A DNA stretch of 64,000 nt from the NCBI GenBank assembly GCA_017499595.2, contig CM039010.1:1798001-1862000 (forward strand), written 5' to 3'. A program made the translations under genes and the position numbers. Below the pieces are notes generated by a model that searched no databases, was not told the DNA's origin, and worked only from the letters and a program-made list of their open reading frames with translations. Origin of the DNA: Psilocybe cubensis. Lineage: Eukaryota. Shown piece after piece: positions 8,883-63,400 of the stretch. The stretch's first letter is position 1; each line of letters opens with the position of its first letter.

Positions 8883-11800
8883 CTATGAATTTGAAGCACC
8901 GGCAGAGCCGTCAGCTGCTGCTGCTGTTGCCGAAAGTCGGTCGTTGACACGCTGACGATGCTGACGATTTTTTAGATGAACTTCGTAATTCGATAACGTC
9001 TCGCCAGGACCAGGGGTATATAACTATGGTTAAAGATGTTTGTTAGCACACACCTTCAATTAAAAGCGCGGCAAGAATGTAAACTCACTTTGCCAGGACA
9101 ATCCAAACATTTGATGCGCCATTCAGGCGTGGTAGACGCGTTGACTTTACGGAGAGTAACTTCAAACCTGTCGTGAGGGTATCTTGCTTGCATGGCTTTT
9201 ATCGCGCCAGATAGCCATGGCGGAGGCTGAAAAAATCAACAGGAGAATTAACAGCGATCATTTCCAATCATCAATAAAACGTACCCATGTCCTTGAAGGG
9301 CTGGCTTGGACGGCCCCTGTGGCAGTAGATGAAGAAGTGTGAGACTGGGAAACAGGCGGAGGTGCTGATGACTCGGCTGCGGGTTGCCTGGCTGGAGTGG
9401 CAGGTGCAGGCATAGGTGTACCACTTGACGAAGCGCCCTTGGTATGACTTGACCCGTTCATCTTCACCTTCTGCGCCAACGGCGGCTCAGAAGCACTGGA
9501 AGCCGTCGACACAGGCGACATCGCCCGATCATCGTCTTGGTTGGCACCTTGATGACCGGAAGGTGATGGCGAGCGACGAGAACTTTCAAGATCGCCGTTG
9601 GACCGAGTAGGTGTTTGGGGCTCCGATGCGTCTGCTGCAGGCGTGGCGCTGTGTGCGGCACTCTGCGCACGAAGGGCCGCAGCGGCGCCTTTCTTCTTCG
9701 AAGCCGGAGTTTTGGCGGCTTCGATCTCCTTTTGCTTGAGACCTGAATGGAAATCCGGGTCGGAATTGTATTCCACAGGTCTTGGTCGCCTGTGTCGATG
9801 CCAGAATTTGCCTGCACAAGTCTGAGAAACGCCAAATAAAGGAAATACCAACAGAACCACGTACCACATGTGCCACACTGTGATTTATCTCCCAACGGAC
9901 CTTTCCTACGTCCAACGGCAATGCTCTCGGGACATCCACAGTTGGAACAGTGCCAAACACCATTGATGTAGTTTGGATGCTGTCCGTCCACGAACTCCTT
10001 CTCCTTCGCTTCCCGCTCAAGCTCCTTTGCCCGTTTGGCAGTGATAATTTTGTTCGCTCTGCTATCCTGCAAACTGTATGGAGCAACGCTGCTTGACGAA
10101 ACGGGTGCTTCGTGCTCTGTTGGCTGTGGTGGCATGGAAGACACATCTGCTGCCGTTGATGGCGTCGGCGCAACAACGTGGGCCCGGGGTCGCAACACCG
10201 ACGAAGGGTACGTAGGAGCCTTGAACAAGCCTTTGGGCTTCTTCTCCTTCGCAACAGCTGCAGCAGACGGCGCGGGCTGGGACACCACCGACGGGGTAGT
10301 CTGCGGCATGTACGTCGTACCATTTTCGCTCGCAACCATGTTCGCGATGGTGACCGACGCAGCAGCAGCCGCGGCACGCCGTGACATGGGCGCGTTGGCA
10401 GCTGCAGCCAACGCGAGAGTCGCAGCATCAAGCTCTGGAAACCCGATAGCGGGCGTACGGTACGTTCGGATAGGCTCGCGGTCGGGGAGGGCGATGCCTC
10501 TGCGTCCTCGGGTGTTGCGTTTTCGGCGCTTGTTGAGGTCCTTGTCGCGTTCTTTTTCAGTGCGTTCGAGCTCGCCGTCGGAGAGGTAATTGAGCAATGG
10601 TGTGAATTGTTGAACTTCGGAAACGGGGCGGGCACCGGATGTAAGACTGGGCAAGAAGGATTGCTTGATGTCGTCGTCTTGCACTGCTGTGCCGTCGGAT
10701 GGGTGACCCACAAGGAACAGTGATTTTTGGTAGGTTTGAACCTGTTCTCGAATTGAATGGGCAATGGCAGTTCTGAAAGTAGCAATTCAATGATGACGGT
10801 CCTGAAAAGATAGTATAGATGGAAACGCACTTGAATTCGCCGCCGAGGCCAAGTTCCTGGGTGTAGACTTCGGCGAATTCTTCAGGAGATGCATTGGGGT
10901 TGTCTAAATCCCATTCGAACTGATCGTCGAGTTTGATGGAGGCAACGATGATATCAAGCTGTAGTTAAAAAAGAAAGGATACTTCAACTTTGATTCCTGG
11001 ATGAAACAGAAAACTTGACGTACCTTGATCAATATCCGCATATCCTCATGCATCAGCTTCTCGTCAAGATTCTGCTGCAGCTCGTCTACCGTCATCGGCT
11101 TGAACGCTGCCTCGCCCAAGATTTTTTCATCTCCTTCCTCGCCCTTATCCTCATCGTCGTCGTCTCCAAATCCAAACGTCACTTTTTTTATATCATCCGC
11201 ACCCTCAAACTCGTTGTCGGCTAGCATACTCGCGTCGGCGTCCGTATCGTCGTCTTCCACCTTCAGATGCTGCAAGTGCGGATTCTGGAGCACGGAGCTC
11301 TGAGAGGTAGTGGCCTTGCGCTTCTTCCCCCGTTTCTTCCCCGTCACCTCCTTCCTCTCACTGTCCTGTGCCTCATCGTCATCGTCGTCATGCGCAAGCG
11401 CACTGACACGTCGCCTCCACACATCCCACCACTTCGCATCATCCGCACCCAGCGACCCCCGAATCAAACCCGCCGACCCACTTTTCTCGCCGGCGGTGTG
11501 GTTGGCGTCGGCGTCGGCGTCAGACCCGTCATCGTCGCCATCGTGGTCCTCGTCGTCGTCAACGAGCGAGTGTGCACGGAAGTCGGTGAGTTGGTCTTGG
11601 ATTGACTTGACGATGATGGCGTGGTAGGACGGCGCGAGGGAATAGTCTTCGACAAGGGATTGCGCAAAAACCTCAGGCGTGATGATCGGGTCTGGTGTTG
11701 TTTTATGGTGTGAGGGGGGTGGGGAGAAAGGCAGACAGAAAGGGTACTTACCGTTGAGGTTCCAGATGAACGTGTCGCGCATTTTGTGGTGCTCGACGTC

Positions 11801-13929
11801 AAATTCTATACGGATAGGAACTAGCCTTTCTGGGCGGTTAGCGTCTTCGGGGCTGATCTTCCTAGGCCTGTAAAATTTGGAACACGCTAAGCTAAGCACT
11901 CAAAACATGGAAGAAAACGGAGACTACGTACAACTTGAAGCCCTCTCTTCTTGTGCCCCTTCTGTTACTTCTACTGCTGCTAGTCGCACCTTTCGGTCTT
12001 GGATACCTGACGTCGAACCTTGGTGGATGCCTCTCTCTGTACTTGTTGAAATTGCCAGTGCCGTTTCCGACTGCGCCGCGCTCCCACCAGTTGGGGCCCG
12101 AAAGACCGCCAGGGGCGAAAACCTCCCGCGCTTCAGTGAGCATGGTTCTCTGCATCTGGCGCACTCGCTCCTCATACTCATTGTCAGTCTCCATCCATGA
12201 CTTAATTTGAGAGATCGTGGTGGGCGATAGTGGTGGAATCGTTGTTGTTGATGTTAGTAAAGGAACGAGAGTCACAGCGGTTGTTTTGGGATTCAAATTG
12301 GTGGATGCTGGGAGTGGAGGCAGAGGGGCAAGGTTGGAGGTTGTATTGGAGGTGCTGGTGTTATTGGGTACTGCCGGGGTGTTTGCGTTGATGGCTGGAG
12401 CAACCCCTGGAAGCAAGGACGATGAGGACGCGGAGGGCTGGATGCCGCCGTTGGGTATGCCCATCCCGCCGACTTGGGGTAGCGAGTTAGATGCCATGGA
12501 AGAGGTTGAAATGGATGGCGCCATGGGTTGAGGAGCACCACCGTGTGGACTGGAGGGCATGCCTCCTATTCCCATGTTCATCCCCATGCCCATTCCCGGT
12601 CGCATACCCATTGGACCTTGCGGTGTCGGCGGCAACGAGCCCTGGCGCATCATGGCTTGCGCTTGTGGGCCCATTTGAGGGGTTGGGGTGGACTGTTGAG
12701 GGGGTAATGAACCTTGCCGAATGGGTGTTTGTGGGCCAGACGGGATATGTGGACGATCGACGTTCATCCCACCCATGTTCATCCCACCCATTCCCCCGAT
12801 GTTGCTCGCCATGCCCATGGAGGACTGAGGGCGGGGCGAATTTCGCTGACCGTTCATTGCGCCGCCCATGCTGGCGTTGCTGACGCTGCCCATGCCCATG
12901 TTTCCAGGCATGTTCATGCCGTTCATGTTCATGCTCATGTTCATCGGGTTCATGGCGCCTGTGTTCATACCACCCATGCCAAGGCTGTCGTTGGAGACGC
13001 TCCTGGGAAGCCCTGGGGGTCCCATCATGCCGCCTGTTGGACCCATACCGGAAAGCCCCAATCCGCCACCGCCGCCACCGATACGCGGGCTGCCTGGGAT
13101 GGGACCAGGGCCGATTCCCATATTGGGAGGAACCATCTCGCCGGTGAGTTTGCGCTTTGCGCCGCGGTAAGGCGACCCGATGGTGGGGGAACCTGATGGA
13201 TTGGGCGGGATTGGGGTGCTGCTGGCTGAATACGGGGGTGCTTGCTGCCCAATGTGCATGCTGGGTTGTTGCTGTTGTTGTTGCTGCTGCTGTGGGTTGG
13301 GAGTGTTAAACATTTGCTGTGGCTGCTGTTGGGCCTGTGGGGGTTTGAAACCGTTAGGATTGTCGCCTCTCTGAGACTAGTATGGACAGATAAGTTTTTT
13401 AGAGTTTGAATAATTGAAGAAAACGATATACCATTCGACTCAAAGGGCGTTGACCACCCTGCCCCATCATATCGTGCATAGAGGTGGGAATGGTCGGAGA
13501 GCGGTGCGCCATGGCTGTACTGGGCCTGGAATGCTGGAGCTGCTGCTGCTGCTGCTGGGGTATACCAGGACCATGGCCTTGAGCTGTGGGTGGTCGTGGC
13601 GGAGGCGGAGGCATCATTTGATGTGACGAAGCCGAGCTGGAGGGGCGGTCGAAGTTCTGGGACGGGTTCATGTTCATCATGAGGCGCTCACGATCCATGT
13701 TCTGCTGCTGCTGCTGCTGTTGCTGGCGAAGATGGTGAATGTACTTTTGAACGAGGATCTGGCGCTCTTGCTGGGGGAGACCGGCGAAGTACTCCTGGGT
13801 AATGCCAGCGGCGGAGAGGAGGGCGGGGATGTTGACCTGTGCCTGGGGGGGCTGTTGGGGAGCATTGTTGGGGAAGGGACCTGTGTTTGGGTTGAAGCCA
13901 GAGGGCTTTTGGAAGGAGTTGGGATTCAT
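8883..13929 (-). CDS. SNF5: SNF5/SMARCB1-family SWI/SNF chromatin-remodelling subunit with a Q/M/P-rich N-terminus, a GATA-type zinc finger and a C-terminal C2H2-like finger; multi-exon
   Basis: Snf5 repeat 1 reads LVPIRIEFDVEHHKMRDTFIWNLN-DPIITPEVFAQSLVEDY. Repeat 2 reads DMRILIKLDIIVASIKLDDQFEWDLDNPNASPEEFAEVYTQELGLGGEF. WHCSNCGC..RRKGPLGDKSQCGTCG is GATA-like. The C-terminus has WRIKCLDCPGK..YTPGPGETLSNYEVHLKNRQH, with the stop at 8883-8885. Confidence 0.85.
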
Positions 13930-14395
13930 GGCCTTGTCGCGTGTCTTGACGCGTCGTGGTGTCGCTGTTGGGCTCCAGGTGACTCAGCACAACTGACCCA
14001 GACAGATGCCACCGATAAGCTGCTATTTCCTCTTTTATGACTCCCGCGATCCAAGGGAAACTGCGAATGAAAATCGACAATCAACGAAACAATGCCGTTC
14101 AATACTCTCCTCCTCGTCCCCCAATCCCTCTCACCGTCCCTTCAGGGCAGGTCTTTCTCTCTCAAGTCACGTGCTCTCTCCGTTGACTTCAAACGTGACT
14201 ATCGTGACTCTGAGGTAACGGTAGGATCTAGAATGGAATAGAATGAAGAACATATATGTATCTAACCAATAAGTAATCTAATCAAGGGGGTACTCATCAG
14301 GAAAATAGGCAAGAAGTAAAATAGATGGTAGATATGGAAGTAATGGGCTAGATAATGTACCATTCATTAGGAAAACAGACAAGGAATAGAACAAA

Positions 14396-14760
14396 GATAA
14401 GCTAAAATCGTTCGAATGGAATCCTGCGAGATGAATGAAGTGTGTGAGTGGGAGAAAAGGAAATATTGGCAGAGAAATGAAATAAGTCCAAGTAAAGAAT
14501 GAGATATTTGTGGCGACACGAATTTTCGTATGTGTGTAGGGCTTTGGCGGCTAGTCAAAAAGTGACTGAGGAGACGGAAGTCACGTGATTGACTGAAAAA
14601 TCTGACGCAAAGTAGACGCAACAAGATGTGGCTGATTTGGAGTAAATCTGGCCACCAAAGGCCTGAGCGCTGAAGATCAAAGTTTGTGATTGGTTATAAA
14701 CTATATGTAATCCAACAAACACAAACCCCAGGAAAAGAGTGGTCCAGACTGGATAGGACA
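14396..14760 (-). mobile_element. Remnant homologous to the 3' non-coding end of the YR-retroelement at 21767-22100
   Basis: Shares collinear blocks with 21767-22050: gataagctaa..gttcgaa, tagggctttggcggc.agtcaaa, aagtcacgtgattgactga and ggccaccaaaggcctgagcg. Confidence 0.65.
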
Positions 14761-16310
14761 AAACCTTCTCCTAAGTTTCTTAAGGGAGGACGCTGCCTAG
14801 GATTTAAGTAGATTAGGATGGTGTGGATTGTGAAGGGTAACGGAAGCAAAATGGTAAGAAGAGGATAACCGGGTCGTCTGGGTACGATGGTAAATAAGCC
14901 TTCCGAAAATAGGATAGAACCATAAAATTAGATGGCGGGTGTATATGGAAAGCGTAAAGAAGATGCGTAGAATGCGTATGAGAAATCAATAAATGTGAAT
15001 CTTAGAGGGGTGGTCGGAAGTGAGTGGGGAACGTTTCAAGGGGAAATGAGGAGATGACTGGGAGTTGGAATATTGTTGAAGGGCTGAATCTTGGAGATGG
15101 TGAAAGTGTCCTTAAATTGACAATCTTTCTGATGCTTGGAATAAAGCTATACGTTGCGGGAGTATTGACTAAATCGAGAATGAAAGACTAAGTCTGTCTC
15201 GAATGAAATCACTCCAGATGAGTTGACGGAGGGAAAGGATGTCTTGGATCCACTCCTAACGGCGATGGTTGGAAGGAGTAGAAGGAGTAGGAGCGGTGAT
15301 GGATTGGATGGGGGAGAGGAAGTAGGGAGTACTGGATGTCTGGATAGAAGTTGGATGATTCAATGCTAGGAAGAAGAGGCATTGGAGGAAAAGAAGGACT
15401 GGTCTCGGATGAAATCCTCTCTCAATGGAAAGCAAGATGACTTCGGATGAATGGAAGTAAACTTGGTCTCAATGGAGGGTGGAACTGATGACTGGATTGG
15501 ACTTGGGTTTGGGCTTGGCTTGAACTTGAGCTTGGAATTGAAATGAATTGATGTGGATTGACTTGAAATTGACTTGACTTGGATGAAAATTGACTTGCTT
15601 TGAAGAAAGTGGGGACTGGGTGTAACTTTCCTGTCATTTTGTGTAATTCTACTACAGCTTTTATACTAAAAAGCTACGTGAACAAAATACCAATCTGAGC
15701 TACTGAAAACCGAGTCATATACTGTACAAAGTGTCAAGAATGAGGCTACGCAAGTGTAACAATAAGCAAGAACAATAAGACATGTCAATATCAACACGAC
15801 GACAGATAAGAAATGAATAGGATGAGTAAGAAAGAAGTGCATGACAAAGGTGAATGGTAATACAGATTAGATAAAAGAAGCAAGGATGAGTCAGAAAGCA
15901 TAGAAGATTGGCAAGACAAAGACAATAAAAGCGCAATAGACAATAGAAAAGATATAAATAAACACAAAAGGATGAGTAAGACAAACCAAAAATAAGATAA
16001 GATGAGTAATCTGCAGTCTGACGCTGAGTAAGACCATTGAGTTGATAAAAATAGAGTTGACAGTCCGGCTGTGCAAGGCAGTGTAGAAAGCTGTGCAGTT
16101 TGATGGTTGACTGATCCGTCGCATAGCCTTGATGATCCGACAGAATGACATGATCCGGAATAACGTGGCTCCCATGTGACGAGTATTGATAAGATAAGAT
16201 GAGTGGATGACTTATGGAAAGAATGACTGCTTGGGTTGAGGGCATCGTGTGTAGATCCAAAATGAAAATCTCATCTCCAATCAGGATTGGGGTATGATAA
16301 CGGCAAGACA
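14761..16310 (-). mobile_element. Probable 5' part of an LTR retroelement (LTR about 16310-15732, then a degenerate ORF from the ATG at 15637) that interrupts the Copia RT
   Basis: The minus strand begins TGTCTTG at 16310, exactly where the Copia RT frame is cut, and has a possible ..TGACA end at 15732. The sequence is pyrimidine-rich and LTR-like. No diagnostic protein motif was seen. Confidence 0.4.
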
Positions 16311-17544
16311 AAAAAGCCTTCTATCTTTCTCAAACTGCTCTTATTGACAAAATCATTGCATCCTTTGGACAGGCCGATTCTCATCCCGTCTCTGTCCCCA
16401 TGGACCCAGGACTGAAACTTAGACAACCAGATCGATCCAAAATGTCCTGGAAAGATAAAGATCGCCTCGCAAAATTCCCATATCGATCCCTAGTCGGATG
16501 CCTTATCTACCTAACCGTTAGAACCCGCCCAGATATCTTATATGCCGTACAGCAATTGTCACAGTTCCTTGACGCATTCTCATATGCTCACTGGAATGCT
16601 GCAATACGCGTAGTCCGTTCCCTCAAGGGAACACAAAATTTGAAACTTAAGCTCAGAGGCAACAAAATCGACCTTATTGGATTCACCGACTCAGATTGGG
16701 CCAATTGCCTTGACACTCGTTGAAGCGTTGGCGGATATGGATTCTCACTGGAATCTGGTCTTGTATCTTGGTCAGCACGCAAACAAGCAACAGTAGCAAC
16801 ATCCTCCACAGAGGCTGAGTATGGCGCTGCCTTTAAAGCATCTAAGGAAGCAATTTGGATGTGTACCCTGCTGACAGAGATAAAATTCTCTCCATCTAAA
16901 GCTACCCCACTACTGTGCGATAACAACTCCGCGATTATACTTTCCGATGATCCCTCACACCATAACCGATCCAAATACTTCAACATTAAACACCATTTTC
17001 TTCGAGAACGCGTACAGAGCGGAGAAATACGCACAGCATATATCAACACAAAAGACAACGCAGCAAATATTTTCACCAAGGCACTCCATCCACAGCAATT
17101 CCTTCGGCTTCACAACATGATAGGTCTCTCTTAAAATTACCCCTTTCTTTCTCTTCTTTCTTATTCTTCTTCAATTATTTTACACCACGATTCCGTTCAA
17201 GATGGAGTACACATCTTATGGTGAGGAGGAGTGTTGATTTCCACCTAACGTGACTCCCCTCAATGTTTGACGTCATGTAACAAACACACCCTTTTCCACT
17301 GTAGATACAAAGCACCTTTATTACATTACATCATATATACAGGGTACGGAAGCTACCCAACACCTCAGTCCAATTATTCGTGACTGAGGTAAGCCCTTTT
17401 TCTATTGACTTAGTTAACTATTTTACTTACTGTACCTAGTCGTGGCATTGCCACTTTACCTTAGGTACAGATCATCTAATAAAGTCCAATTATTTGTGAC
17501 TGAGTCGTGGCATTGCTACTTTATCTTAGGTCTGGATTTCTACA
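16311..17544 (+). mobile_element. Ty1/Copia 3' fragment (family A): RT end, RNase H, PPT and 3' LTR
   Basis: Motifs YRSLVGCLIYL..TRPDI, GFTDSDWA, SWSARKQATVATSSTEAEY, LCDNNSAI and RSKYFNIKHHFLRE. An internal TGA lies at 16721. The PPT gaggaggag is followed by TGTTGA at 17232. Confidence 0.92.
17232..17544 (+). repeat. Copia family A LTR (TGTTGA..TCTACA) with an internal hairpin, introns and a spliced duplicate
   Basis: Follows the PPT and has TG..CA ends. The internal duplication is described in the findings. Confidence 0.85.
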
Positions 17545-17752
17545 TATTATAAAGGAAGGTTAAAGAATAAAGGTGACATCATATAGAAAAAGGATGAGTA
17601 AGACTAGAAATCATATAGAATTTACTAGAAAGAAGTGGAGCAAGAAGGCTATGATAAAAGAAATAAACTATCTAATCAGATAATTGATAAGATAATGAAA
17701 GGATACAATAAATCTGTGAAGATAAAGAAGGAAAACTGGGGAAACCCTGACA
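17545..17752. repeat. Partial copy of the LTR at 32185-32626, truncated on the left by the Copia A insertion
   Basis: About 200 bp closely similar to 32419-32626 and ending in CCCTGACA. Confidence 0.85.
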
Positions 17753-19249
17753 GTTATAAAGAGTCATATAAACTTCTGGATAAACAATAAAAAAACATTC
17801 AGGGGGAAGATTTAACAACACTGTCATATTTGTGTAGGTTTCCAAGATATTGAGGGCATCAAAATATGGATTGCCAAACTTTGTTCTCATCTTATTTCTA
17901 AGAGACTCATCTACACAAAATACATGTCAGATTTCAGTAGAAAATCTTGCTGTTATATGTACTAGAGATGTGAGCATTAGCAAAGACAAAATTTAATTGA
18001 TTGGCAGTGAAAGCAAAATTGCCAGCATTTCCAATGCATAGAATGTTCAATAGTTTATTGTTGAGAAATATTATATCTGATACTTTGGAAGGGCTTATTT
18101 TCAGCAAAGGTATAGCCAATTGAGAAAATATTTAATACAAGAAAACTAAGCAATGATACAAGCACAAATTTAGAAGCACTTATACATAGTAGGTTTGACT
18201 GTACATCCAAAGTATCCAAATTAACTTTAGATATCTTGTAATTGATGTCAAATAAATAGATCATTGTCTATCTTTGGTGGGTGGCGCCCAATTGAATGCA
18301 TCATCATATCTTTGAGTTGAATTTTCACATAGACAATATTTGAATTTTGCATCAGCAAAAAAGACCAAGTCTCCAAATGCCTTATCAAAGGCATTTGGAG
18401 ACAATCAAATGCCTTAAGACCCAAATGGCCTTTTAAATTGACTAATTAGAAACTTGGAATTTTGAAATGCTATAAATTATTTCATAAACCCAAAGTATGA
18501 GCTAGATTTAAATTTAATCAAATTATTTGGGTAAAATTTAGGAGATCCAAAAACATTTGAATAACATTTATGTTGCATTTGAGAGCCTCAAAAACATTTA
18601 AAATTCACCCAATATTGACACAATGATATATTTTATATATTTCTACTCCTGGCAGCCACTTTAGATATTTACACAATAAGATGTAGAAATTCAATGAAAA
18701 ATATTATTGAAATAATTTAAAACAATAGAGGCTACATAGAAATGACTAAGAAAAAACAGATTTAAATTTATTAGTTACAATTTGGGAACTAGAAAAATGT
18801 TACGGAATCATATGATTGAATTGATGCGCAAAAAAGATTTACACTAGTTGATGAGTCACGGTTAAGTAAAATTAAATGTATGTACATATACATACCATGT
18901 CACAAAAAGGCAAGATGTCTTGTAAGGAAATGACATTGTGATCTGTCCTTAGTGCCATTGCAAGGCATCTTATGATTGGTAGTCCTGACATGTTGATCTC
19001 AATGGCAAAACTGTGATTAATGTTGGCACTTGCAATATTATGCAAACCAATTGTGAGATTGTGATGGCCTTGTAAGGCCATTACAATCTCATGATGTCAC
19101 TTATAGATTACAAGCTATCAACTGAATCAACCATTCCTGTGTTTTCTTCCCTTCCCACTATCTTACGCATACGTTAGCACATCAATAGCACCAACTAGAA
19201 CAAAAAAAAGCACTTGGAAAGCATTAGAGATCACTTGTTGCTTGTACTA

Positions 19250-29479: not shown

Positions 29480-31302
29480 TATCAATGGATTTTGTGTATC
29501 AAGAAGAATGCAGCCGGGAAAATCAAAAAATATAAGGCACATCTAGTCATTAAAGGCTTCACTCAAATTGACAGCATAGACTATTATGAGACGTATGCAT
29601 CTATTGCTTGTTTTGCATCTTTTTAACTCTTTTTTGCTTTTGTTGTGCAGAATGACTGGATTGCAGACATTATCAACTTTGATTCAGCATATCTTAATAG
29701 TAAATTAGGGCCAAACCAGAAGGATTTTCTCAAACAGCCATCCAAGTTTGCTACTTGCAGCAGTTGTGACTGGGTTTGGCGGTTAAACAAAACATTATAC
29801 AGTTTGAAACAGGTTGCTAAAAACTAGTACAATACACTTTGTAAAGCTCTTGCTGATTTGGAGTTTGTAAAGATGGATACAGACTATGGAGTCTTTGTAA
29901 AGAAGATGAGCTCTAATATCATTATTCTTGCAGTACACATTGACAACTGCCTACTTGTTGGGAGCTCTAGAAAGCAAATTAACAAATTTAAAAAGCAAAT
30001 GAATCATATCTACAAGCTTACCAACTTAGGTGCCATGAATTAGCTCTTGGGGATCAAGATTACTCAAGATTTTGTCAACCATATTATTTCCCTATTCCAG
30101 GATGCGTACATTAATTTTCTTCTTGCACAATTCAATTTTAACAATCTGAAGTTGTCATCTATCCCTATGAATTACACAGCTACGCTCTCAAAATTGTAGT
30201 TCTCCACAAAAATTACAGACATCATTAAGATGCAGTAAATTCCATACTGTGAAGCGGTTGGATCCTTGATATATGCAGCAATGGAAACTTGTCCTGATAT
30301 TGCATTTGTAGTATCTACAGTGGCATAATTTTCCAAAAATCCAGATTGGGCTTATTGAGAGGCCATAAAGCAAATCTTTTGTTATTTATTAGGCACTTGC
30401 TTGTTACAATTAATGTATGGTAGCAAGAAACAAGGGGTGGAAGGGTTTATTGATACTAAGAGAGCATTTCAAGAGCACAAGTGTGCAATTTCCAAGTATA
30501 TTTTTATGATTGATGGAGGAACTGTTAGCTGGTCATTGAAGAAAGAAGAGTTACACTGTCAACTACCAAGGCAAAATATGTTACCCAAACTTACACTGAA
30601 AAGGAATCCATTTGGCTTTGTGAACTTATTACTCAGCTTTTTAGGCCACTTGACGGCTGAACTATTTTATTTTTTAATAGCAAATTGACTATTGCACTTG
30701 TGCAAGACAGATATTATCATGCATGCATAAAACACATTGATATTTGCTATCATTTTATCTACTATATCATCAAAAAGGGCATGATCAAGTTGATCTACTA
30801 ATCCACAAATAACATGACAGCTGACATTCTTACCAAGGTACTTTCTAGCATGAAGGCTAAACATTTTGCTACCACCTTCAGACTCAGCATAGTTTAAAAA
30901 GAGTATTGAATATTATTTCTAACTGTGCCTTTGTAATGCACGTCTTTTGTTTGATTAGATTTTATTTCCTGGTTTTTTTATTTCTCCGTGATGACCTCAA
31001 TATTGTCTAAACCATATGTAGATGGATGCATATATGGACAATATGTATATTGAGTAGGTTTGCATGGCTTGGGCATTTTCCCAGCCATTTTTTGTATCAC
31101 ATATACTATTCCATTTTGTATTAACGCCCCTTAGTCTATTCTACATTGACTGAGCTGGGTTGACTATTATTTTTACCAGTTCCCTTCACATATTGACTTT
31201 GTGTAGCCTTACATTTTGTTCAATAGGTACTATACATGAATAGAAGTCTATTCTACATTGACTGAGCCTTAAATTTTGTTCAATAGGGCTATATTATTCT
31301 AT
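29480..31302 (+). mobile_element. Ty1/Copia 3' fragment (family B), heavily decayed: RT, RNase H and LTR about 30904-31302
   Basis: Motifs KYKAHLVIKGFTQ..IDYYETYA, DFDSAYLNS-like NFDSAYLNS, LNKTLYSLKQ, LAVHIDN, DGGTVSWSLKK and KHIDICYHF. A decayed PPT is followed by TATTGA at 30904. Confidence 0.88.
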
Positions 31303-31349: not shown

Positions 31350-32184
31350 TACTGTGCATTTTGATAAAAAATGAAATTCTCTCTGCAGCATCTCATCTAA
31401 TAGATAGATTATTTTGCAGCTTGAGAAAAATATTTTGAAGACACTTATAGATATCTATAGATGTCAAGAATTTAATTTATAACAAAATATTTGTAGAGAT
31501 ATGGACTAATTAATGACCTAGCATATTTTTTCTCATACCCCCTTTAATCAGTATATTTTTTTGCTACAGAGGGTTTATAAGGGTAAGTTTTGAGTTCTAA
31601 ATACTCTTAGCATTGGATCTACATGTTTTTTAATGGTCTGAAGGCCCATTCTATGCTATAATAAAATACACAAAATCTAGAAAGGATGAGTAATAGTACC
31701 ATCCAATCTTGGAATTTAATCAAGAATAAGAGCTTTAAAATTAGTAAAATAAATGCCTAACTAATCCTAGCTGGGTCTAAATTTATCTGATTAGGAAGGC
31801 ATTCATACAAGGGGTAGAAAGAGGGGTAGTATGCACATTCTAGTTCAATGGCCCATATGAGATAATCAGAAAATTAAGTCCTGTTACTTATCAATTACGA
31901 CTATCTATATCCTATGGTAATCATCCAATATTAAATATTGCTGATTTGGTTTGCTATAAGGAGTTGCCACTAGAATTTGGGGAAAAAGAGAAAATAAAAC
32001 CCATAAAAGAGTCTTTTGACAAATTACCCAAAGTCCAAATGGAAAAAACAGTCAATGAAAGACTTTTCAAAGCACAAGATAAGAATAGAAAGGTACGGAA
32101 GTTTTGGGCAAGGTAGAAAGGTTTTCCAAAGGAAGAAGATGAATGGCTAACAAAGAAAGAACTAGGAAACACACCAAAAATCCT
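31350..32184 (+). mobile_element. Ty3/Gypsy (chromovirus-like) integrase C-terminus and chromodomain remnant
   Basis: FNGPYEIIRKLSPVTYQLRL..HPILNI (GPY/F module) and FWAR*KGFPKEEDEWLTKKELGNTPKIL (chromodomain-like). Confidence 0.75.
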
Positions 32185-32626
32185 TGTCAGGGCAACATTA
32201 TAATCAGTATAACAAGGGCACCAACAAAGATCAAGCAAGAGAGAGAGCAGAGGAAGAGTAAGAGAGCAGAATGAGAATAAGAGGATAAGAGAGACTCAAT
32301 GATTCTAAAAAATTACACTAATGATAGTGGATATTCTAAGAGATTGAAGCTGAGACTACAGCTACCTACAAGTCCAGTATTTATACTCTAGAGCTATTCT
32401 AGAATATTCCCTATATTACATTATAAAGGAAGGTTAAAGAATAAAAGTGATATCATATGGAAAAAGGATGAGTAAGACTAGGAATCATATAGAATTTACT
32501 AGAAGAAAGTGGAGCAAGAAGACTATAATGAAAGAAATAAACTATCTAATCAGATAATTGATAAGATAATGAAAGAATAAGATAAATCTGTGAAGATAAA
32601 GAGGAAAAACTAGAAAAACCCTGACA
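32185..32626. repeat. LTR of 442 bp with 8-bp inverted termini TGTCAGGG..CCCTGACA
   Basis: Terminal inverted octamer and a partial copy at 17545-17752. No matching TSD (atcct versus tagac). Confidence 0.75.
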
Positions 32627-33639: not shown

Positions 33640-34780
33640 GGTAACACAAACTAGCAACTTTGCGTTGCTGGTTTTGTCAAGGAGGTGGGTGCAGCAGGGG
33701 ACCAGCAGAGCAAAAGGATGCAAGGATGAAGGCGACGCAGAACCAGCAGAGTGAGCTGCAGGTTTGTCGAGAAGGCGGGGCCGGTAAAAACACAGACTAG
33801 CAGTTTGCACTGCTGGTTGTCAATGGAGGCAGGGGCAGAGTGGACAGACCAGCAGCCCAAAGCCGCTAATTGTCAGTAGAGATTGGGATGGGGATGGTGG
33901 CAACACAAACCAGCATAGCGAGCTGCTGGTTTGAGCTGCTGGTTTGTTAAAGAAGAAGGGGACAGAGGGCAATGGAGAGAGAAACCAGCAGCTTTGGCTG
34001 CTAGTTTGTCATGGGAGACAGAGGTAGGGAGTAAGAGTGGCAGCGGCGGGACACAAACCAACAGTGCGCATGCTTGGTTTGTTGACGGATGGCGGGAAAG
34101 CAGAAACAGCAGCCTAACTGCTGGTTGTTGAGGAAGATGGAGGCAGGGGCAAGAGAGATGATGATGCCATCATCAATGGAGGCTGCGGCGGCAGGGAGCA
34201 ATGGCGGCAGCGATACGAATGTCGAGGGAGATGGTGGTGGGGGGCAAAATGAGCAGCAATGCGACTGCTGTTCATTGAGGAAGGTGGTAGGGGCGGAGAA
34301 ATGAACTAATAGCTATATAGCTGTTGATTCTGTCAAACTAAACAGCAGAGGCGGTGATGCAAACCTGCAGCTCTAAGCTGCTAGTCGTCGATAGAGGCAA
34401 TGGCAGCGGCAATGCAGAACTAGCATTGCACTGCTGGTCGTTGATTAAAGCAAAGACAGCAGGCATGCAGAGTCAGCAGCCAGCAGGGAATTGCTAAGTT
34501 AGCAATAAGGCAGAGGTGGGGGTTGTAACAATATAAAATAGCAGTATAGAGCTGCTGGTTATTGAGGAAGGCGGTGGTGCTGGGAATGTTGGTCAGAGGA
34601 GGCAGAGGGAGAGGTGCTAGGACACAAATCAGCAGCCTTTGCGCTGCTGGTTGTTGACAGAGGTAGGGTAATGGCAACCCAAACCAGCAGCCGTCAAATG
34701 AAGAAGCAGGGTTGTCAAGATCGAGGGAGACGCAGGGAAGGAGAATACAACCAGCAAGCTTAGTGCTTCTAGTTGTTGAG
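33640..34780. repeat. Array of palindromic units, consensus (AC)AAACCAGCAGC-Nx-GCTGCTGGTT(TG), with G-rich spacers
   Basis: Examples: caaaccagca-tagcgagc-tgctggtttg at 33906-33933 and aaaccagcagctttggctgctagttt at about 33982. Confidence 0.8.
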
Positions 34781-50235: not shown

Positions 50236-52516
50236 TATACTGTATATAAACAAATCCTTCTCTTTAGTCAGACTTTGTAATTGGTCAAGTATTAGTCAAA
50301 GTTAGATTAAAGTTGACTTGAGGTAGACTTAAGTTCTTTAAAGCCTAAATCCAATCAAATTCAGATTTAGAATTTGGAATAAAGTTGAAAGCAAAATAGC
50401 AAACAAACTAATTAAATTGAGTATAAGGTAGCTAAGTAATCTAAGTTGATAATCAACTTGGGAATTCTAGTCTGAAACAAGAGGGGTTTATATACTACTA
50501 TTGGAATAAAAATAAACCACCAAAAATAAGTCATAAAAAATAAAAATAAAGAGTAAGAATAATGAATAAAAGAAATAAGGTTTAAGAGAAGGTAAGACAG
50601 ATGTCTGAAATAAGTTTACATACAAAGTTAGACTAAAGTTGGAATCCAGAAGCTGGGAGATAGAAGTCAGATGTGGAATTCAACTGACAATGTTGTATAA
50701 TAAAGTCAAGAGAGTATAGTATATCACAAGTCCTATTTATTTAATTTTGCTACTAAAAGTTATGTATTATCTTAGATTATTGGTTTTATTTTTAAATAAT
50801 TTTGCTTAAATTATTTCTATTCTTTTATCCATATAATATTTAATATAATATACTATTTATATTTGCTTATATTAATGCTTAAATTTATATAAACATATAA
50901 AAAACATGCTTATGTATAATACTTAATGAATAAATTGGTTAAAACCAAGTGGATAATCAATACAAGCAATTTAGAAATGTGCTTTCCATTTTGGCAAAAT
51001 CTTCTATATTTAGTAATCAAATTCAATTTCTACTTGTGGTATACTAGTCTCAATCTAGCCTCTTGGAATGATTGTGGCTATGCCAACCTATTTGGAACTA
51101 AAGTCCTCAAGAGAAATCATAACCAAAAGATCTAATACAATTTAACCATAATCCAAGGAATTAGAATTTGAAACTCTGCTAATGGCTCAAATTAGTAATA
51201 CAGAAGTATTTCTACCTTGCCTTCTCAATAACATTTTTCATTTATATTATTTTTTTGTAGTTTGTCTATAGAATAAGAAATATATAATTACTATTCTATA
51301 GTCTAATAAGAAAATAAAATATAACAAGCTATATAGAATATTATTTTAAGGAATAAAACTAGCAATAAAATAGACTAAATATCTGATAAATAATATGGTG
51401 CAGTGGAATTACTTTGATAAAAATAGATTTTTGCTCATCTTTAAAAATAAAAACCTACTTTAAATTTTATTTATCATATTTACTACCAAATAATTACTAA
51501 AACTAAAATTAAGCAGAATAGCAAGTTTAAGACTGAGCAGATTTGCAATATTCTTACTAAAAGGTCTATCAAAGTCTTGGATATGCGCCCTTTTCAATGA
51601 CAACTCAAAGCTGCAGGTATAATTTTATTTGGCAAGGATGTCATTTTTAATGTTGGTACTAGATATGAGAAATCTTTATATTTCTTGCTTTTTTTATTGG
51701 TAAGTAAAAAAGCCATTGCTCTTATAGTGACACTACTTTTTGCTCTGATAAAAGATTAGGTATATTTTCAAGTCAACAAGATATAGTATATATTTATATG
51801 TGAGTTATATTTACAGATTAATAATTTTAAATTGCCAGTAGTAGCTGTATGCAGTAAACAATGTCAAGGATTGGATATGAACAGATATATGAGGTAGATA
51901 CTATAATTAGTACTTTGAAAAATAAAAATGAAAAATTAGGGTAAATTAAACTATATGCTTTGTCTTTCTGCTCAAGTTGGGCTTTAAACAAAGCTTTTTG
52001 CTATTTTTAAAGTATTCAATCCAAATTTAAAATCATAATTACAATTTCTTTACTTATTATTGTGCAATTAAATATATAATATTTTGCTCAAAAAGCGCAC
52101 CTTAAATAGTACTCTTTAGGAGTTGTTGGTATGCACTCTTTTGACTTGTTAAAACTGCTCTTTATATCTCCCTCACTTTGCTATCTTATCAGATTAGATT
52201 ACTTTCTTCTTATCTTCATTTGCTCTCCAGACCATTCTAGACACATGATATTTATCAGTCCATAGACTGGTCTGGACCGGACCAGAGTAGACCTAGATAG
52301 ACCAGAGTACTTGAGTCTGCACAGTATATAGTTACTCTAGTTTACATCCTGAAGTCCCCAGTTACTCACTTCGGACTTCAGGTTAGTTTGTTAGCACTTT
52401 GCTCAATTCACCCAGTCACTCACTCAGACGCTTTGTGCTTGCTTATCCCTGCGCCCTACGTTGTATAATTAGGTCGCCGAGTAGCTCACACTGCTCCGAG
52501 CTCGCCTGCTTCAACA

Positions 52517-55500: not shown

Positions 55501-56108
55501 GGTGTTGCCATTGAGCGAGATATGGCTGCTAAAACCTTTTCCTTGCATCAGCGTCAGTATATCCTCGATATGCTTGATACATATGGCATGACTGATTCTA
55601 ATCCGGTCAAAACACCTATGGTTGTGGGCACTGTTCTATCCAAGGCAGATGGACCTTAGAATGGAGATGAGGTGGAATTTATGCGAAATGTTCCCTACTT
55701 CAATGCAGTTGGCTCCTTGCAGTATCTAGCCACCATGACCCGTCCTGACATTGCTTTTACTGTGTCCTATCTGGCACACTTCAACTCCAATCCTGGGCCT
55801 AAGCATTGGGCTGCGATTAAACATTTATTCCGCTACCTCAGAGGCACTCTGGATTACAAGTTGACTTATTCTGGCGCTGTGGGCCATGATAACTTTGTCA
55901 TTTACACTGATGCTGCACATGGTGATTGTGTAGATACTAGACGCTCTACGAGTGGTTATTTGACCATTCTAGCTGGAGGTGCTATTGGCTGGGCAAGCAA
56001 ACTCCAAACTGTTGTAACTCTGTCTACTATTGAGGCAGAATATATTGCTGCGGTGGAGGCAGCCAAGGAGATTGTGTGGATGCGCAATATTCTTGAGGAG
56101 TTTGGCTA

Positions 56109-57979
56109 CATGGCCGAACCTAAGACTGCGTCAAATCGGGGTGCAACAAACAGCTGCTGGTCGAGGTTAAAGTCTTGCGGTTGACCGGAGTTTATCGGCA
56201 TATTTACTAAATTTGAAAACCTCCATGATACTCAGAATAATATATGAAATTTCCAAAGTCTTGCTGAAACTATGTTCAATCTGAGTTTTTGACCTTGGTC
56301 TAACCCAACTAATTGCTGCTGCCGGCACAATGGCCTCCAGACACGATATCCCAGACCCTGCAGGTATGAGTGACATCATTCAAATTGCTTATTCAATTAC
56401 CTATATCCCAACCTCCACTTTAGTCTTCCGGTGCGTTGACGCCGCTGGCCACACTCTCCACTATATCTGTCGAATATGCAGCAATGGCAAACTATTTCTT
56501 GCCAACAACTGCTCATGACACATATTTTTGATTTAACAGCTACATTGAGGAGTCTTTTTTATAGGACAACAAAAAGTTCAACAGGTATTCTACAACCACC
56601 GGCGTCCTTGGATTATCATCGAGAGATTCTTCTGCACATCCTTTGCCGTCAACTGCTCCCACCGCAACATCAAGCCGCTCAACCCTGGTTAGCACACCAT
56701 CAAATCCTTTCATTCAAGCACCCAGCACAGATTCTGCCAGCAGCAACTGGATTTCAGTGATGCTTAGCTCTCAGGCAATGAATGAGTAGAGTTAAAAATG
56801 TAGTAAATATTGTATCGAAAGCTCAATTCTATGCAATTTTTATGTCTGCCCATTCGACTCCCAGTATTGAGCCCCTGAGCCACTGTTGATATCTATTTGG
56901 TACAAGGTACCATGGCTCGGGCATTTTCGCGTGGTTACTCTTATCACCCGATGACCATGTTCTCTGCCCCCCCTTCCCCTTTGCAGGCTGATTGGCACAT
57001 TGTCAGTGTCATTAGACTGAATTTTTATCCGTTGTGCTGCTGAAGCACAAACATCTGCACGTTGGAAAGATCCAACCTCTCAATCTGTGAGAGTGTGCTG
57101 AACAGTGCAATGTTCTTTCATATTTTTTTTCTTTGCCCCGCTCTATTCTATGTTTTGGTCACCATAAACACCTGTATGTTGGAAAGATCCAACCTCCCGA
57201 CTTGTGGGAGTGTGCTGAGCAGTATAGTTTTTTTATCATTCATTGCAGGCCGGAATGTGGCTGCTTTCGTCCCTCCCATGCTTGCTTAGCTCTGTTTGGG
57301 ACTATTTCTTGCAAAGTGAGTAGCTTATTTTAGTTTGTGGGTTTGCATTTTGCTTAACCGCATCTTCATTGCAGTCTTGCTCAGGTGCGGCTTAGAAGTT
57401 AGGATGGTTAGAAGGCTCAGGACTGAAAGGTACGACAATTAACTCTTTATCCATCAACCTTATCTCATATGGTTTCCTATGCAGTGTTTTGCTCTCATCC
57501 AGTTCAATCATGCTTTCCAGGAGGATATGCTAGATGGGCTGGTCTGGGTGGCAGGAGGATGGTGTAGATGCTGGGTGCTGCATAGCGTATAAGATAGGTG
57601 TTTACAGGAGGTTTCAGAAACTTTTATACTACTCTGTACCCTGTAGAATACAATAAATTGTTTCTTACTTGCATATAGTCCCATACCTAAGCATATAACC
57701 ACAAAATGACGGTTTTCTATAGCATAAACGATGCCCACAGCCTCAAAAAAACCCATTCTATAAAAAGAAATACTTGACCTCAGGAATTTCAGACGGCTTC
57801 AGACCAAAGTCTAATATGCATGAGCACATGCGGTTGACCTATGAGGTCATGGGTCAATACCAAGGCATCAAGATTTGGAATTTCCGACGTCTAACATTCT
57901 GCAGTGATTCCGGTGTTTGACTAGGATTTGACTACAGTCCCCGTGACTAGGGTCTGACCTTGCCAACCGTCTGGCTGTG
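56109..57979. mobile_element. Non-autonomous DNA-transposon-like insertion with CAC(G)GCC-type ends and a 2-bp TA duplication, within the Copia RNase H
   Basis: Reads tttggcTA|catggcc...ggctgtg|TAtacaatc, whereas the uninterrupted copy reads tttggctacacagtc. It contains a short spliced ORF with YICRIC and a 2-unit repeat at 57050-57225. Confidence 0.75.
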
Positions 57980-59420: not shown

Positions 59421-59725
59421 CTCCTTTTTTCATGTATCCTAGTTTCAATCTTGTCCTTATACCATTTGTTGTCCATTTTTTGTTATGTTGTTGATGTTTT
59501 TTCTGGATATGGAAATCATGGTCCATCCAGAAAGGTTAATATTGTTCATCTCTTAAAAAAGTGGAAGGACAGCTATTCTGTTGCCCTTTAGTTGTGGTGT
59601 ACAAGTGGCATGCCAGAAGACTGAAAAACTCTTTGCAAGGCCTGTAAAGCTGCAAAATGCAAGTTTTTTGACATTCATATCTCAGAGATCTTTGAAGTCA
59701 ATAAATACATCTAGAACCTGATATT

Positions 59726-60103
59726 TGTTAAAACTGCTCTCCATGTCTCCCTCACTTTGTTATCTTATCAGATTAGATTACTTTCTTCTTATCTTCATTT
59801 GCTCTCCAGACCATTCTAGACACATGATATTTATCAGTCCATAGACTGGTCTGGACCGGACCAGAGTAGACCTAGGTAGACCAGAATACTTGAGTCTACA
59901 TAGTATATAGTCACTCTAGTTTACATCCTGAAGTCCCCAGTTACTCACTTTGGACTTCAGGTTAGTTTGTTAGCACTTTGCTCAATTCACTCAGTTACTC
60001 ACTTGGGACTTCAGACGCTTCGTGCTCGCTTATCCCTGCGCCCTACGTTCTATAACTAGGTCGCCGAGTAGCTCACACTGCCCCGAGCTCGCCTGCTTCA
60101 ACA
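59726..60103 (+). mobile_element. Solo LTR of Copia family C (378 bp) with 5-bp TSD ATATT
   Basis: Reads ATATT|TGTTAAAAC..TTCAACA|ATATT and matches 52147-52516. Confidence 0.95.
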
Positions 60104-60492: not shown

Positions 60493-63400
60493 TGTTGAAG
60501 CAGGCGAGCTTGGGGCAGTGTGAGCTACTCGGAGACCTAATTATAGAACGTAGGGCACAGGAATAAGCGAGCACGAAGCGTCTGAAGTCCGAAGAGAGTA
60601 ACTGGGTGAATTGAGCAAAGTGCTAACAAACTAACCTGAAGTCCAAAGTGAGTAACTGGGGACTTCAGGATGTAAACTAAAGTGCCTATATACTGTATAA
60701 ACTCAAGTACTCTGGTCTACCTAGGTCTACTCTGGTCCGGTCCAGACTAGTCTATGGACTGATAAATATCATGTGTCAAGAATGGTCTGGAGAGCAAATG
60801 AAGATAAGAAGAAAGTAATGCAATCTGATAAGATAGCAAAGTGAGGGAAACATAGAGAGCAGTTTTAACACTCCCCCCTGTTCTGACAAGTCTCCAGAAC
60901 AAAGAAAAATAACGCAAAACAGAGAAAGAAAGATTAAAGTTTGAGACCCATTTTATCTCTACAAAAGTCCACTTTGGGAGGTGAGAGGGGTTTGGTGAGA
61001 ATATCAGCAGCTTGCTGATCAGTAGGAATATAAGAAGGAGAAATCTTTCCAACACCAACAGCATCCCTAAGCCAATAATAGCACAAATCAAGGTGCTTCA
61101 TCCGTCCATGGTGCTCTGGATTCTTGGAAACACTGATAGATGACTGGTTGTCCATATGCAGCACAGAGGGCTTAGTGACTGTGTAGCCAAACTCCTCAAG
61201 GATATTGCGCATCCACACAATCTCCTTGGCTGCCTCCACCGCAGCAATATACTCTGCCTCAGTAGTAGACAGAGTTACAACAGTTTGGAGTTTGCTTGCC
61301 CAGCCAATAGCACCTCCAGCTGGAACGGTCAAATAACCACTCGTAGAGCGTCCAGTATCTACACAATCACCATGTGCAGCATCAGTGTAGGTGACAAAGT
61401 TATTATGGCCCACAGCGCCAGAATAAGTCAACTTGTAATCCAGAGTGCCTCTGAGGTAGCGGAATAAATGTTTAATCGCAGCCCAATGCTTAGGCCCAGG
61501 ATTGGAGTTGAAGTGTGCCAGATAGGACACAGTAAAAGCAATGTCAGGACGGGTCATGGTGGCTAGATACTGCAAGGAGCCAACTGCATTGAGGTAGGGA
61601 ACATTTCGCATAAATTCCACCTCATCTCCATTCTGAGGTCCATCTGCCTTGGACAGAACAGTGCCCACAACCATAGGTGTTTTGACCGGATTAGAATCAG
61701 TCATGCCATATGTATCAAGCATATCGAGGATATACTGACGCTGATGCAAGGAAAAGGTTTTAGCAGCCATATCTCGCTCAATGGCAACACCAAGTAAATA
61801 CTGTGTAGGACCCAGATCACGGAGTTCAAAATGCGCAGCTTGCTGCTTAACAGCTCTATCTATGGTGGCGTTCGATTTGGAGGCAAAGGTAATGTCATCA
61901 ATGTAAATGGGAACAATAATCTTCACATCTCCATCTGAATAGATATAGACAGAGCGATCTGATTCTATAAGCTTGAACCCCATATCTGACAATGCCTCAT
62001 GCAACTTGAGGTTCCATTGACGTGCAGACTGCTTAAGACCATAGAGCGACTTTTTGAGCTTTAAAACCATGTTAGGACCACCTTGGTAAAATCCTTCAGG
62101 TTATAACATGTAAATCTCCTCGTCTAGGTCACCTTTAGTGAAAGCAGCTGTAATATCAACAGAGCGCAACTTCAAGTCTCCAATGGCGGCCAGAGCCACA
62201 ATCAAGCGGAAAGTAGCAGGGCGGAAAGTAGGAGCAAAGACCTCATGGTAATCAATGCCAGGGCGCTGACTGTAGCCCTTGGCAACAATACGAGCCTTGT
62301 AGCGCTCTATACTGCCATCTGCATTTTGCTTGATTTTAAAGACCCAACCACAGCCAATTGCCTTTTGACCCGGAGGGAGCTCAACTCACTCCCAAGTTTG
62401 GTTGTGCTGCAATAGATTGAATTCTGTGATAGCAGCCTCTTCCCACGTGTGCACATCAGGTGCTTTCATTGCCTGTTTGAATGTGCGCAGATCTGTGCTT
62501 GAAACAAGCCCAGCAAACTCCACCTCTTCAAATCCAGGATCATTGGCTTCAGGTGGTTCAGGATCATGTGAGACCTTCCACCATTCACCAGGCTGCTTAG
62601 GAACGCAAATAGTGCGTCTCAACGTTGCAGGATCAACTGGAGCATGCTGGCAACATGCAGGCTTAGGAGGAGGTTCAGAAATGGCCTGAGGCTATGGTAG
62701 TTCAGCTAGCTATTCAGGAGGTGCAATAGGCATCTCTGGCTCAATGACAGGAATTAGAGTAGAGTCATCCTCATCATCATCAAAATTGAAGCCATTAGAG
62801 TCCCCCCCTGAATTAGGAGGTGGTGCACTTGCAGAAGAAGTAGGAAGAAGGTCAAACTTTGGCATAGGGCCAGTGGACACCCCAGGATACACTTTTCCAT
62901 ATGAGGCTGCAACGATTTGCACTTATCTCCCTGCATAAATATATGCAAGGCAACCCAAAACCTGAAATAACTAACATCAGGTTTGCGCTTGTTCCAGCTC
63001 TCATACGGAGTCTTGTCTGGTAAAGAGGCTGTAGGAACACGATTCCATACATGCATGTATGCTGCACCACAGCGACCCCAAAATGAAGGTGGAACACAAG
63101 CCTCATTGAGCATGGAAGTAACATGTTTTGCTATGGTGCGATTTGCACACTCTGCAACTCCGTTCTATTGTGGGCGATTTTGCATTGTATGACGACGCTC
63201 AATGCCACACTGGTCAGTGAATTTGATGAAAGTATTTGACATGTATTCACCAGCTTTGTTATCCTGCAGCACTTTGATCTTAAAGCCTAATTTGTTCTCA
63301 GCCCATGCTTTGTACGTTTGGAACGCACTGAATGCATCGCTTTTGCACTTAAGAAGCACAGCAGCTTTACTCTTCATCTACTAATCGGCTTAGAATGTGA

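Follow-up and report, generated by a model that had tools for sequence, protein, structure and literature searches.

We asked how a long terminal repeat (LTR) retrotransposon could carry introns inside its LTR and still hand them on to its progeny. Retroelements copy themselves from RNA; an intron removed from the template is lost, and LTR elements are therefore usually described as replicating from unspliced RNA. The question is raised by an LTR of a Copia element in Psilocybe cubensis, which lies in a stretch of 64,000 nucleotides (nt) of contig CM039010.1 (assembly GCA_017499595.2, positions 1,798,001 to 1,862,000 of the forward strand), hereafter the window. An earlier note on this DNA had described the LTR as holding two introns together with a pre-spliced copy of its own exons. 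To judge from sequence comparison, this layout is a conserved family trait of a Copia lineage, beyond chance. The family probably has a ‘split R plus contiguous R’ design, R being the repeat region, in which the contiguous copy, here called A'B', is renewed from spliced RNA so that the introns are inherited. It is the family that is of interest, the copy in the window being a dead relic.

An LTR with two candidate introns and a contiguous copy of their exons

The LTR and the sequence in front of it are made up of the following parts, given as positions in the window.

16301 to 17134 (+): Copia pol remnant, C-terminal reverse transcriptase (RT)/RNase H by its translation, with an in-frame TGA at 16721-16723
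17220 to 17231 (+): polypurine tract GGTGAGGAGGAG, directly before the LTR
17232 to 17544 (+): 3' LTR, 313 bp, TGTTGA...TTTCTACA (TCTACA end), with an imperfect terminal inverted repeat
17334 to 17339 (+): TATATA box, 33 nt upstream of the start of A
17362 to 17390 (+): hairpin 1, a predicted fold with a 9-bp stem, ACCTCAGTC (17362-17370) / GACTGAGGT (17382-17390)
17367 to 17388 (+): exon A, 22 nt, ending GAG at 17388; homology to A' starts exactly here
17389 to 17439 (+): candidate intron 1, 51 nt, with a GTAAGC donor, a branch-like TACTTAC and a CCTAG acceptor; precisely missing from A'B'
17430 to 17470 (+): hairpin 2, a predicted fold in which CTGTACC(TA) of the end of intron 1 pairs with (TA)GGTACAG, with B in the loop
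17440 to 17464 (+): exon B, 25 nt
17465 to 17482 (+): spacer S, with GTACAG at 17465-17470 (candidate donor 2), CTAAT at 17476-17480 and AATAAA at 17478-17483, the last entering A'
17465 to 17529 (+): candidate intron 2, 65 nt, GTACAG...TTAG, equal to S+A'+B', with GT..AG ends
17483 to 17529 (+): A'B', an intron-less contiguous copy of A+B, with A' at 17483-17504 and B' at 17505-17529
17530 to 17544 (+): U5 (unique 5' region) tail, 15 nt, ending TTTCTACA

The coordinates that the earlier note had listed for TATATA, the stem arms, the 51-nt segment, B, GTACAG, AATAAA and A'B' were all confirmed by reading the sequence. There A'B' was counted as 17485-17529; with the shared AG included, the homology starts at 17483. 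Transcription is predicted to start at A17367, within TCAGTCC, which we take to resemble an initiator (Inr) element; the 5' arm of hairpin 1 spans this predicted +1, and donor 1 lies within its 3' arm. In the window copy, A and A' are identical at 21/22 positions, B and B' at 23/25, and A+B and A'B' at 44/47. At all three positions where they differ (17379/17495, 17452/17517 and 17459/17524) AB has C and A'B' has T, one of these being at a CpG, a pattern that fits deamination-type decay of an old copy after its insertion.

What is left of the coding sequence is the pol tail, the final 277 codons only, as two open reading frames (ORFs; 16301-16723 and 16724-17134, +) with one TGA between them. 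The tail has no Pfam match of its own and is 63-75% identical in amino acids (aa) to nine metagenomic Copia loci. One relative, L002, is 75% identical to it at the C-terminus and has an intact ORF of 1547 aa, whose Pfam order (Retrotran_gag_2, Pol_BBD, gag_pre-integrs, rve, SH3_retrovirus, RVT_2) is that of Copia, including the protease barrel. The gag-protease-integrase-RT/RNase H order of Ty1/Copia elements (Pseudoviridae) is seen through this relative, and their LTR form (TG..CA, short inverted ends, a preceding polypurine tract) in the window and in eight loci; the window element does not have two LTRs with a primer-binding site (PBS) and a target-site duplication. The polypurine tract is kept in relatives, with exact matches of 17-18 nt in L002, L007, L008 and L009. 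The note's label of a Copia LTR is thus borne out by the RT/RNase H tail, the polypurine tract and the TGT..ACA ends. Upstream the element is cut off at about 16299/16300, where an unrelated ~50-copy repeat ends loosely (16299), and no second copy of the 17232-17544 LTR occurs in the 64,000-nt window. The lone LTR and the 5' truncation mark the window element as a relic: 17232-17544 is the 3' LTR of a dead, 5'-truncated Ty1/Copia remnant.

The layout recurs in a Copia lineage

A search of metagenome contigs with the pol tail gave 17 loci, ten of which form a close lineage with 59-75% identity over the matched part. In eight of the ten (L001, L003, L004, L006, L007, L008, L009 and L016; 63-75% aa identity in pol) the sequence runs on for at least 400 nt past pol; since L008 and L009 are one element, seven of these are independent. 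The other two, L002 (175 nt after pol) and L005 (16 nt), stand outside the layout count, and L002 gives the last 61 nt of its 5' LTR. Homologous LTRs of 290-394 bp follow pol in all eight, and the parts come in the same order in 9/9 parsed LTRs (the eight loci and the window). In the eight relatives, TATATA is followed after 33-35 nt by A, a GT..AG segment of 50-53 nt, B, GTACAG with a 15-19-nt spacer containing CTAAT, A', B' and a 15-nt tail ending TTTCTACA. Their exon A is 22 or 27 nt long and reads AGTCC...GACTGAG. The layout stands alongside intact ORFs in L003 and L004 (at least 1600 aa).

The same signature can be sought by program, as a GT..AG segment whose flanks recur joined nearby. 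Both strands of the window were scanned for segments of 40-100 nt with 10+10-nt flanks rejoined within 400 nt and at most two mismatches, which gave six matches, the LTR being one of them; the others lie at 29276, 34284, 34653, 49994 and 18235 (minus strand). The match pair at 34.2-34.8 kb is false as a split repeat. It comes from a degenerate GCTGCTGGT-type repeat, 34240-34760 being built of GCTGCTGGT[CT][AG]TTGA-like units that give rise to both matches. Further Copia pol remnants lie in the window at 55531-56145 (+), 60943-61761 (-) and 30092-30466 (+) and are 31-38% identical to the one studied here; none of the three showed a split-repeat signature in the window scan.

In the relatives, 1.5 kb downstream of pol was scanned blind, with 8+8-nt flanks and at most one mismatch. 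In all eight close loci the homologous segment, and nothing else, was returned, without a mismatch, and the four distant Copia loci (L010, L011, L012 and L014; 22-41% identity, at least 1200 nt each) gave none. Absence of the pattern from other family copies, which the earlier note had said would count against its reading, is therefore not what we find: the pattern is present in 8/8 close loci. Among viral contigs, a protein scan found no relative of the element, and the hairpin-plus-donor pattern turned up only in two unrelated, GC-rich, phage-like hairpins.

Taken by itself, the window copy, a truncated relic with no second LTR, could be read as the one-off, functionless fossil of an aberrant strand transfer. 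The layout is, however, found in four diverged lineages (the window; L001/L003; L004/L007/L008; L006/L016), ORF-intact elements among them, and in each B' equals a lineage-specific B. We reject the fossil explanation as barely conceivable.

A'B' follows the exons through sequence turnover

Exon B is 25, 24, 19 or 10 nt long across the four lineages, and its aligned similarity between them is only 36-61%. B' nevertheless matches B inside each LTR, at 23/25, 24/24, 23/24, 18/19, 10/10, 19/19, 19/19 and 10/10 positions (n = 8 elements, L009 being omitted as a duplicate of L008). For the whole of AB and A'B' the counts are 44/47, 46/46, 45/46, 44/46, 31/32, 45/46, 44/46 and 31/32, an identity of 94-100% in all eight elements. 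Copies that lie 65-116 nt apart should, if independent since the lineages parted, differ as B does between lineages; they do not, which argues for repeated rewriting. Concerted evolution of AB with A'B', which the earlier note had proposed to look for across LTRs, is thus plainly there, B' following B through full turnover of sequence and length. Its simplest cause would be that reverse transcriptase has copied A'B' again and again from spliced A-B RNA.

Homology between A and A' starts at AGTCC in 9/9 LTRs, 33-35 nt past TATATA. The base preceding A is always C, and the base preceding A' is A, T, C or G among the nine. An A' that starts at the first transcribed base is what strong-stop complementary DNA (cDNA) of the transcript would give.

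One element, present as L008:3623-4016 and L009:2788-3181, has an LTR with three exon copies in the order A-intron1-B-S-A'B'-S-A''B'', and its ORFs are broken. If the leader had lost intron 1 alone when strand transfer to A'B' took place, just such an LTR would result; slippage could also produce it. The array would tend to lengthen if S+A'+B' were not removed as well, which is an argument for the second splice as the normal route.

The likeness of AB and A'B' might also have arisen without any splicing, through a tandem duplication at the DNA level in which one copy gained or lost the 51 nt, the two being kept alike by gene conversion or by selection for identity. The repeats are indeed adjacent, a 2-nt AG microhomology flanks the 51-nt difference, and unequal exchange as well as slippage could give the three-copy variant. 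Yet conversion over tracts of 10-27 nt is inefficient and should sometimes erase or copy the 51 nt, which is the case in 0/9 LTRs, and the boundary of A' coincides with the predicted +1. Moreover, in every lineage the segment begins with GT and ends with AG, and its extended donor and branch/acceptor sequences are conserved. As the copy is precisely intron-less and changes in the length of B are mirrored in it, conversion or identity selection is a poor alternative, and we regard this origin as very improbable.

Intron-like features of the two segments

In an alignment of seven LTRs, which leaves out L008/L009 with their extra unit, intron 1 has an invariant GT[AG]AGC donor region, an invariant ACT[AT]ACTGTAC before the acceptor and a variable interior. 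Across the relatives it measures 50-53 nt and has a GTGAGC or GTGAGT donor (GTGAGT in L008/L009), an ACTAAC or ACTTAC site and a TAG acceptor; in five LTRs ACTAAC lies 12 nt before TAG. The branch consensus is CTRAY. At 17389-17439 an extended donor, a branch site, an acceptor and an intron-like size are all found. Host introns in the window, taken from RNA contigs, are 55-65 nt long and have the donors GTGCGT, GTACGT (twice), GTAAGT and GTATAT, so that neither a length of 50-53 nt nor a GTAC start would be out of place in this host.

In the second candidate intron GTACAG is invariant, B' always ends in YAG, and S+A'+B' measures 50-65 nt in 9/9 LTRs though the lengths of A and B vary. Donor 1 (17389) and GTACAG (17465) both precede CTAAT/AATAAA at 17476-17483, a putative 3'-end signal, and this order is conserved.

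Two RNA runs, one raw whole-genome shotgun (WGS) run and one contig set were aligned to 10701-17800. WGS depth is ~23-37 over single-copy sequence, 44-68 over the pol tail and the U3 (unique 3') region, and 113-122 over the region of intron 1, where about a third of the reads have 1-nt indels inside the 51-nt segment (18/118, 38/113 and 38/122; one strain, among the variants listed). Reads that differ across intron 1 only by such 1-nt indels imply that a few other copies in that genome keep the 51-nt segment; copies that are without it, or without A'B', may also exist there.

A route by which the introns could be inherited

We lean, if only by a little, towards the view that a fungal Copia lineage has turned R into a split gene, with two exons at the start and a contiguous copy 116 nt downstream, in which obligatory double splicing would recreate R and remove the 3'-end signal, and strand transfer would restore both introns. 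What we infer here is where transcription starts (the transcription start site, TSS) and where poly(A) is added, that both segments are spliced out, what the two hairpins do and how often the spliced route is taken. Transcription in the 5' LTR would start at the first base of A, ~33 nt past TATA, giving the leader A-intron1-B-[S-A'-B']-U5. Loss of intron 1 would come first and would take away one arm of hairpin 2, freeing the GTACAG donor. The second intron (S+A'+B') could then be spliced out together with the A/T-rich 3'-end signal of S, leaving an RNA with the 5' end A-B-U5. In the 3' LTR the read-through RNA would have the upstream arm of hairpin 1, so that donor 1 and exon A would be sequestered, splicing would not occur, and the RNA would end in or just after A'B'. 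Minus-strand strong-stop DNA made from the spliced 5' end would land on A'B' and then copy S, B, intron 1, A and U3 back. The new LTR would regain both introns, with its A'B' overwritten by spliced AB.

RNA folding of 17340-17544 predicts both hairpins, with a z-score of -3.3 and 0/200 shuffles equal; the pairing in hairpin 2 is between CTGTACCTA, which closes the 51-nt segment, and the last bases of B together with GTACAG. In 7/7 aligned LTRs stem 1 has eight invariant pairs, and stem 2 has six invariant pairs and one C-G/U-G pair. Over both stems 91.7% of cells are paired, against 28-37% with the partners slid, and RNAalifold recovers both. With intron 1 present, donor 2 is mostly paired in silico; once the intron is deleted, its unpaired probability rises in 8/8 elements, and this opening suggests that splicing may be ordered. 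Hairpin 1 in the read-through RNA would also bury the upstream exon A, steering strand transfer to A'B' and avoiding a collapsed U3-A-B-U5 LTR. Collapsed LTRs of this kind number 0/9.

Evidence weighing against double splicing

Several observations weigh against this route. The relatives all come from four metagenome data sets; their only 5'-LTR sequence is the last 61 nt of that of L002, and no locus has an LTR pair. GTACAG has A at +5 instead of the usual G and is a non-consensus donor. No good branch motif was seen near the B' acceptor, the sole invariant CTRAY-like motif being CTAAT, ~50 nt from the acceptor in the window. AATAAA, which the earlier note had taken as the poly(A) signal of the design, occurs in the window copy only; the relatives have AATATA, AATACA or AATCGA, and the motif that is conserved is CTAAT. 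Covariation of the stems, another of its expectations, did not appear, 0/19 stem pairs changing on both sides among the seven aligned LTRs. The arms are invariant, hence there is no covariation, and they could be kept as Inr or splice motifs instead; both stems are predictions.

The hiding of the donor by hairpin 1 in the 3' LTR, as the earlier note had pictured it, fares unevenly. In snapshots of nascent RNA, a start 60 nt upstream leaves donor 1 more paired than a start at +1 does in 7/8 elements (the exception is L007). When the whole LTR is folded, the 3' context gives the higher pairing of donor 1 in only 3/8, and the missing covariation counts here too. What is strongly supported of the note's interpretation, by the concerted evolution, is A'B' as a copy of spliced AB renewed through reverse transcription; stem covariation is not. 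As to RNA, the exact locus was matched in eight DNA runs from three studies and in no RNA run. Both aligned RNA runs have five CT..AC joints in a nearby SNF5 gene, a positive control, and zero depth over 15204-17800, the LTR included; zero depth at the window relic is uninformative on the expression of active copies.

Much of this would agree with another arrangement, in which intron 1 is real and spliced RNA gave rise to A'B', yet the RNA that is packaged normally goes unspliced and has a long R from A to the poly(A) site. Recombination with spliced RNA packaged alongside, for example, would then refresh A'B' from time to time, the GTACAG segment would be no intron, and there would be no splice/poly(A) switch. 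The weakness of GTACAG as a donor, the want of a well-placed branch site, a global folding without 5'/3' difference at donor 1 and the zero depth on the LTR in both RNA runs all speak for it, and a long R would replicate the layout faithfully without splicing. Without frequent rewriting, however, AB and A'B' should drift, and they are 94-100% identical in eight elements despite the turnover of B. GTACAG is invariant, and S+A'+B' keeps its intron-like 50-65 nt despite its variable parts. Singly spliced RNA, furthermore, would add a copy at each transfer, and an added copy is seen in one element only, L008/L009. We hold an unspliced template with a long R to be unlikely, though it deserves to be kept in view.

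Relation to known retroelements

Sub-genomic splicing is known in Copia-lineage elements (Drosophila copia, barley BARE), where the introns are internal and concern the balance of gag and pol. Deltaretroviruses have splice donors in R, with introns spanning into the body of the genome. In copia, BARE and the deltaretroviruses alike, no RNA but the unspliced one is known to serve as replication template. Retention of an intron by Penelope-like elements was reportedly described by Arkhipova et al. in 2003. We know of no LTR-internal intron pair with a processed copy, and the literature that we searched, mostly without subscription journals, yielded no description of an LTR with introns and a pre-spliced copy of its exons; a prior description is possible.

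The nearest parallel for the switch is the foamy virus LTR, whose major splice donor lies within R, ahead of the poly(A) signal; U1 snRNP bound to this donor suppresses 5' polyadenylation, independently of splicing (Schrom et al. 2013, PMC3694450). In the 3' LTR, additional upstream nucleotides (-13 to -1) refold the RNA around the donor and allow polyadenylation (PMC3694450). The Copia LTR is alike in having a donor inside the LTR before a putative 3'-end signal, and in having the 5' arm of hairpin 1 upstream of the predicted +1, the switch itself being predicted only. It differs in its two candidate introns and contiguous exon copy, whereas the foamy virus LTR has neither a complete intron nor a pre-spliced duplicate.

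Penelope has a 75-bp intron, 46 bp after the TSS, that is kept through retrotransposition; most of its transcripts are spliced, and a reporter is no longer expressed once the intron is deleted (Schostak et al. 2008, PMC2377424). It is likewise a retroelement keeping a short intron near its start. Penelope nonetheless belongs to another class, with a GIY-YIG endonuclease and no LTR or strand-transfer replication, and the available portion of the report gives no pre-spliced exon copy and leaves the retention of the intron unexplained (PMC2377424). Spliced, LTR-contained transcripts with introns in the LTRs, 1303 bp long on average, are reported for maize LTR retrotransposons (bioRxiv 10.64898/2026.05.08.723830). 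These are long introns in non-coding transcripts, unlike ours, and the part of that report at hand does not mention a duplicate of the exons, nor does it connect the introns with strand transfer or with their inheritance.

Expression that depends on introns is reported in Basidiomycota, in Armillaria (PMC4935854), Ganoderma (PMC8379801, PMC7017817) and Cryptococcus (PMC3744415, PMC5851062). As far as the accessible texts go, this concerns host genes and transgenes, not retroelements, but it would give a retroelement in such hosts a selective reason to carry a promoter-proximal intron. If the double-splicing route is true, it would be the first described by which an LTR retroelement is spliced in its replication template and still inherits its introns, and the LTR would carry a built-in record of its own splicing. 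Being spliced and being copied from RNA would no longer be at odds. The element would gain the benefit of splicing in hosts where intron-less transcripts reportedly accumulate poorly, and would have solved the choice between 5' and 3' poly(A) sites in a new way. For each part of the progeny LTR, the design predicts the parental bases from which it should come. Its signature, a GT..AG segment whose flanks recur joined downstream, is searchable in any genome. The design also points to a compact leader with an intron that expression constructs for mushroom-forming fungi might use.

Neighbouring features

The host gene used as the control for RNA lies upstream of the element.

9464 to 13994 (-): SNF5/SMARCB1-family gene (Pfam PF04855), expressed in both RNA runs

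Its introns, of 55-65 nt, are at 10773-10830, 10959-11023, 11692-11751, ~11867-11931 and 13377-13431.

Repeats border the element on both sides. The sequence at 14671-16299, which adjoins the break in Copia pol, has a depth of ~1500, corresponding to ~50 copies, with loose ends at 14671 and 16299; it shows strong GC and AT skew and has no long ORF with a Pfam match. Directly flanking the Copia LTR is a 207-bp repeat (17546-17752), which recurs at 32420-32626 (92% alike) and is present in ~100 copies, with a WGS depth of ~3000 against ~30 for single-copy sequence and sharp borders at 17549 and 17752. Ahead of the copy at 32.4 kb, at ~32100-32200, lies a stretch that on visual inspection resembles the chromodomain end of a Gypsy integrase, and the 207-bp repeat is probably part of a chromovirus LTR.

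A PBS-like word, GGTTATGGGCC, stands after the 5' LTR of L002 (62-80) and also after the post-pol LTR of L006 (3045-3065); the latter position suggests either two tandem elements sharing one LTR or a recombinant. No tRNA gene, as a possible partner of this word, occurs in the window. Elsewhere in the window, a direct repeat pair of 279 bp (52146-52424 and 59725-60003), 96% alike and 7579 bp apart, may represent the LTRs of one further Copia remnant.

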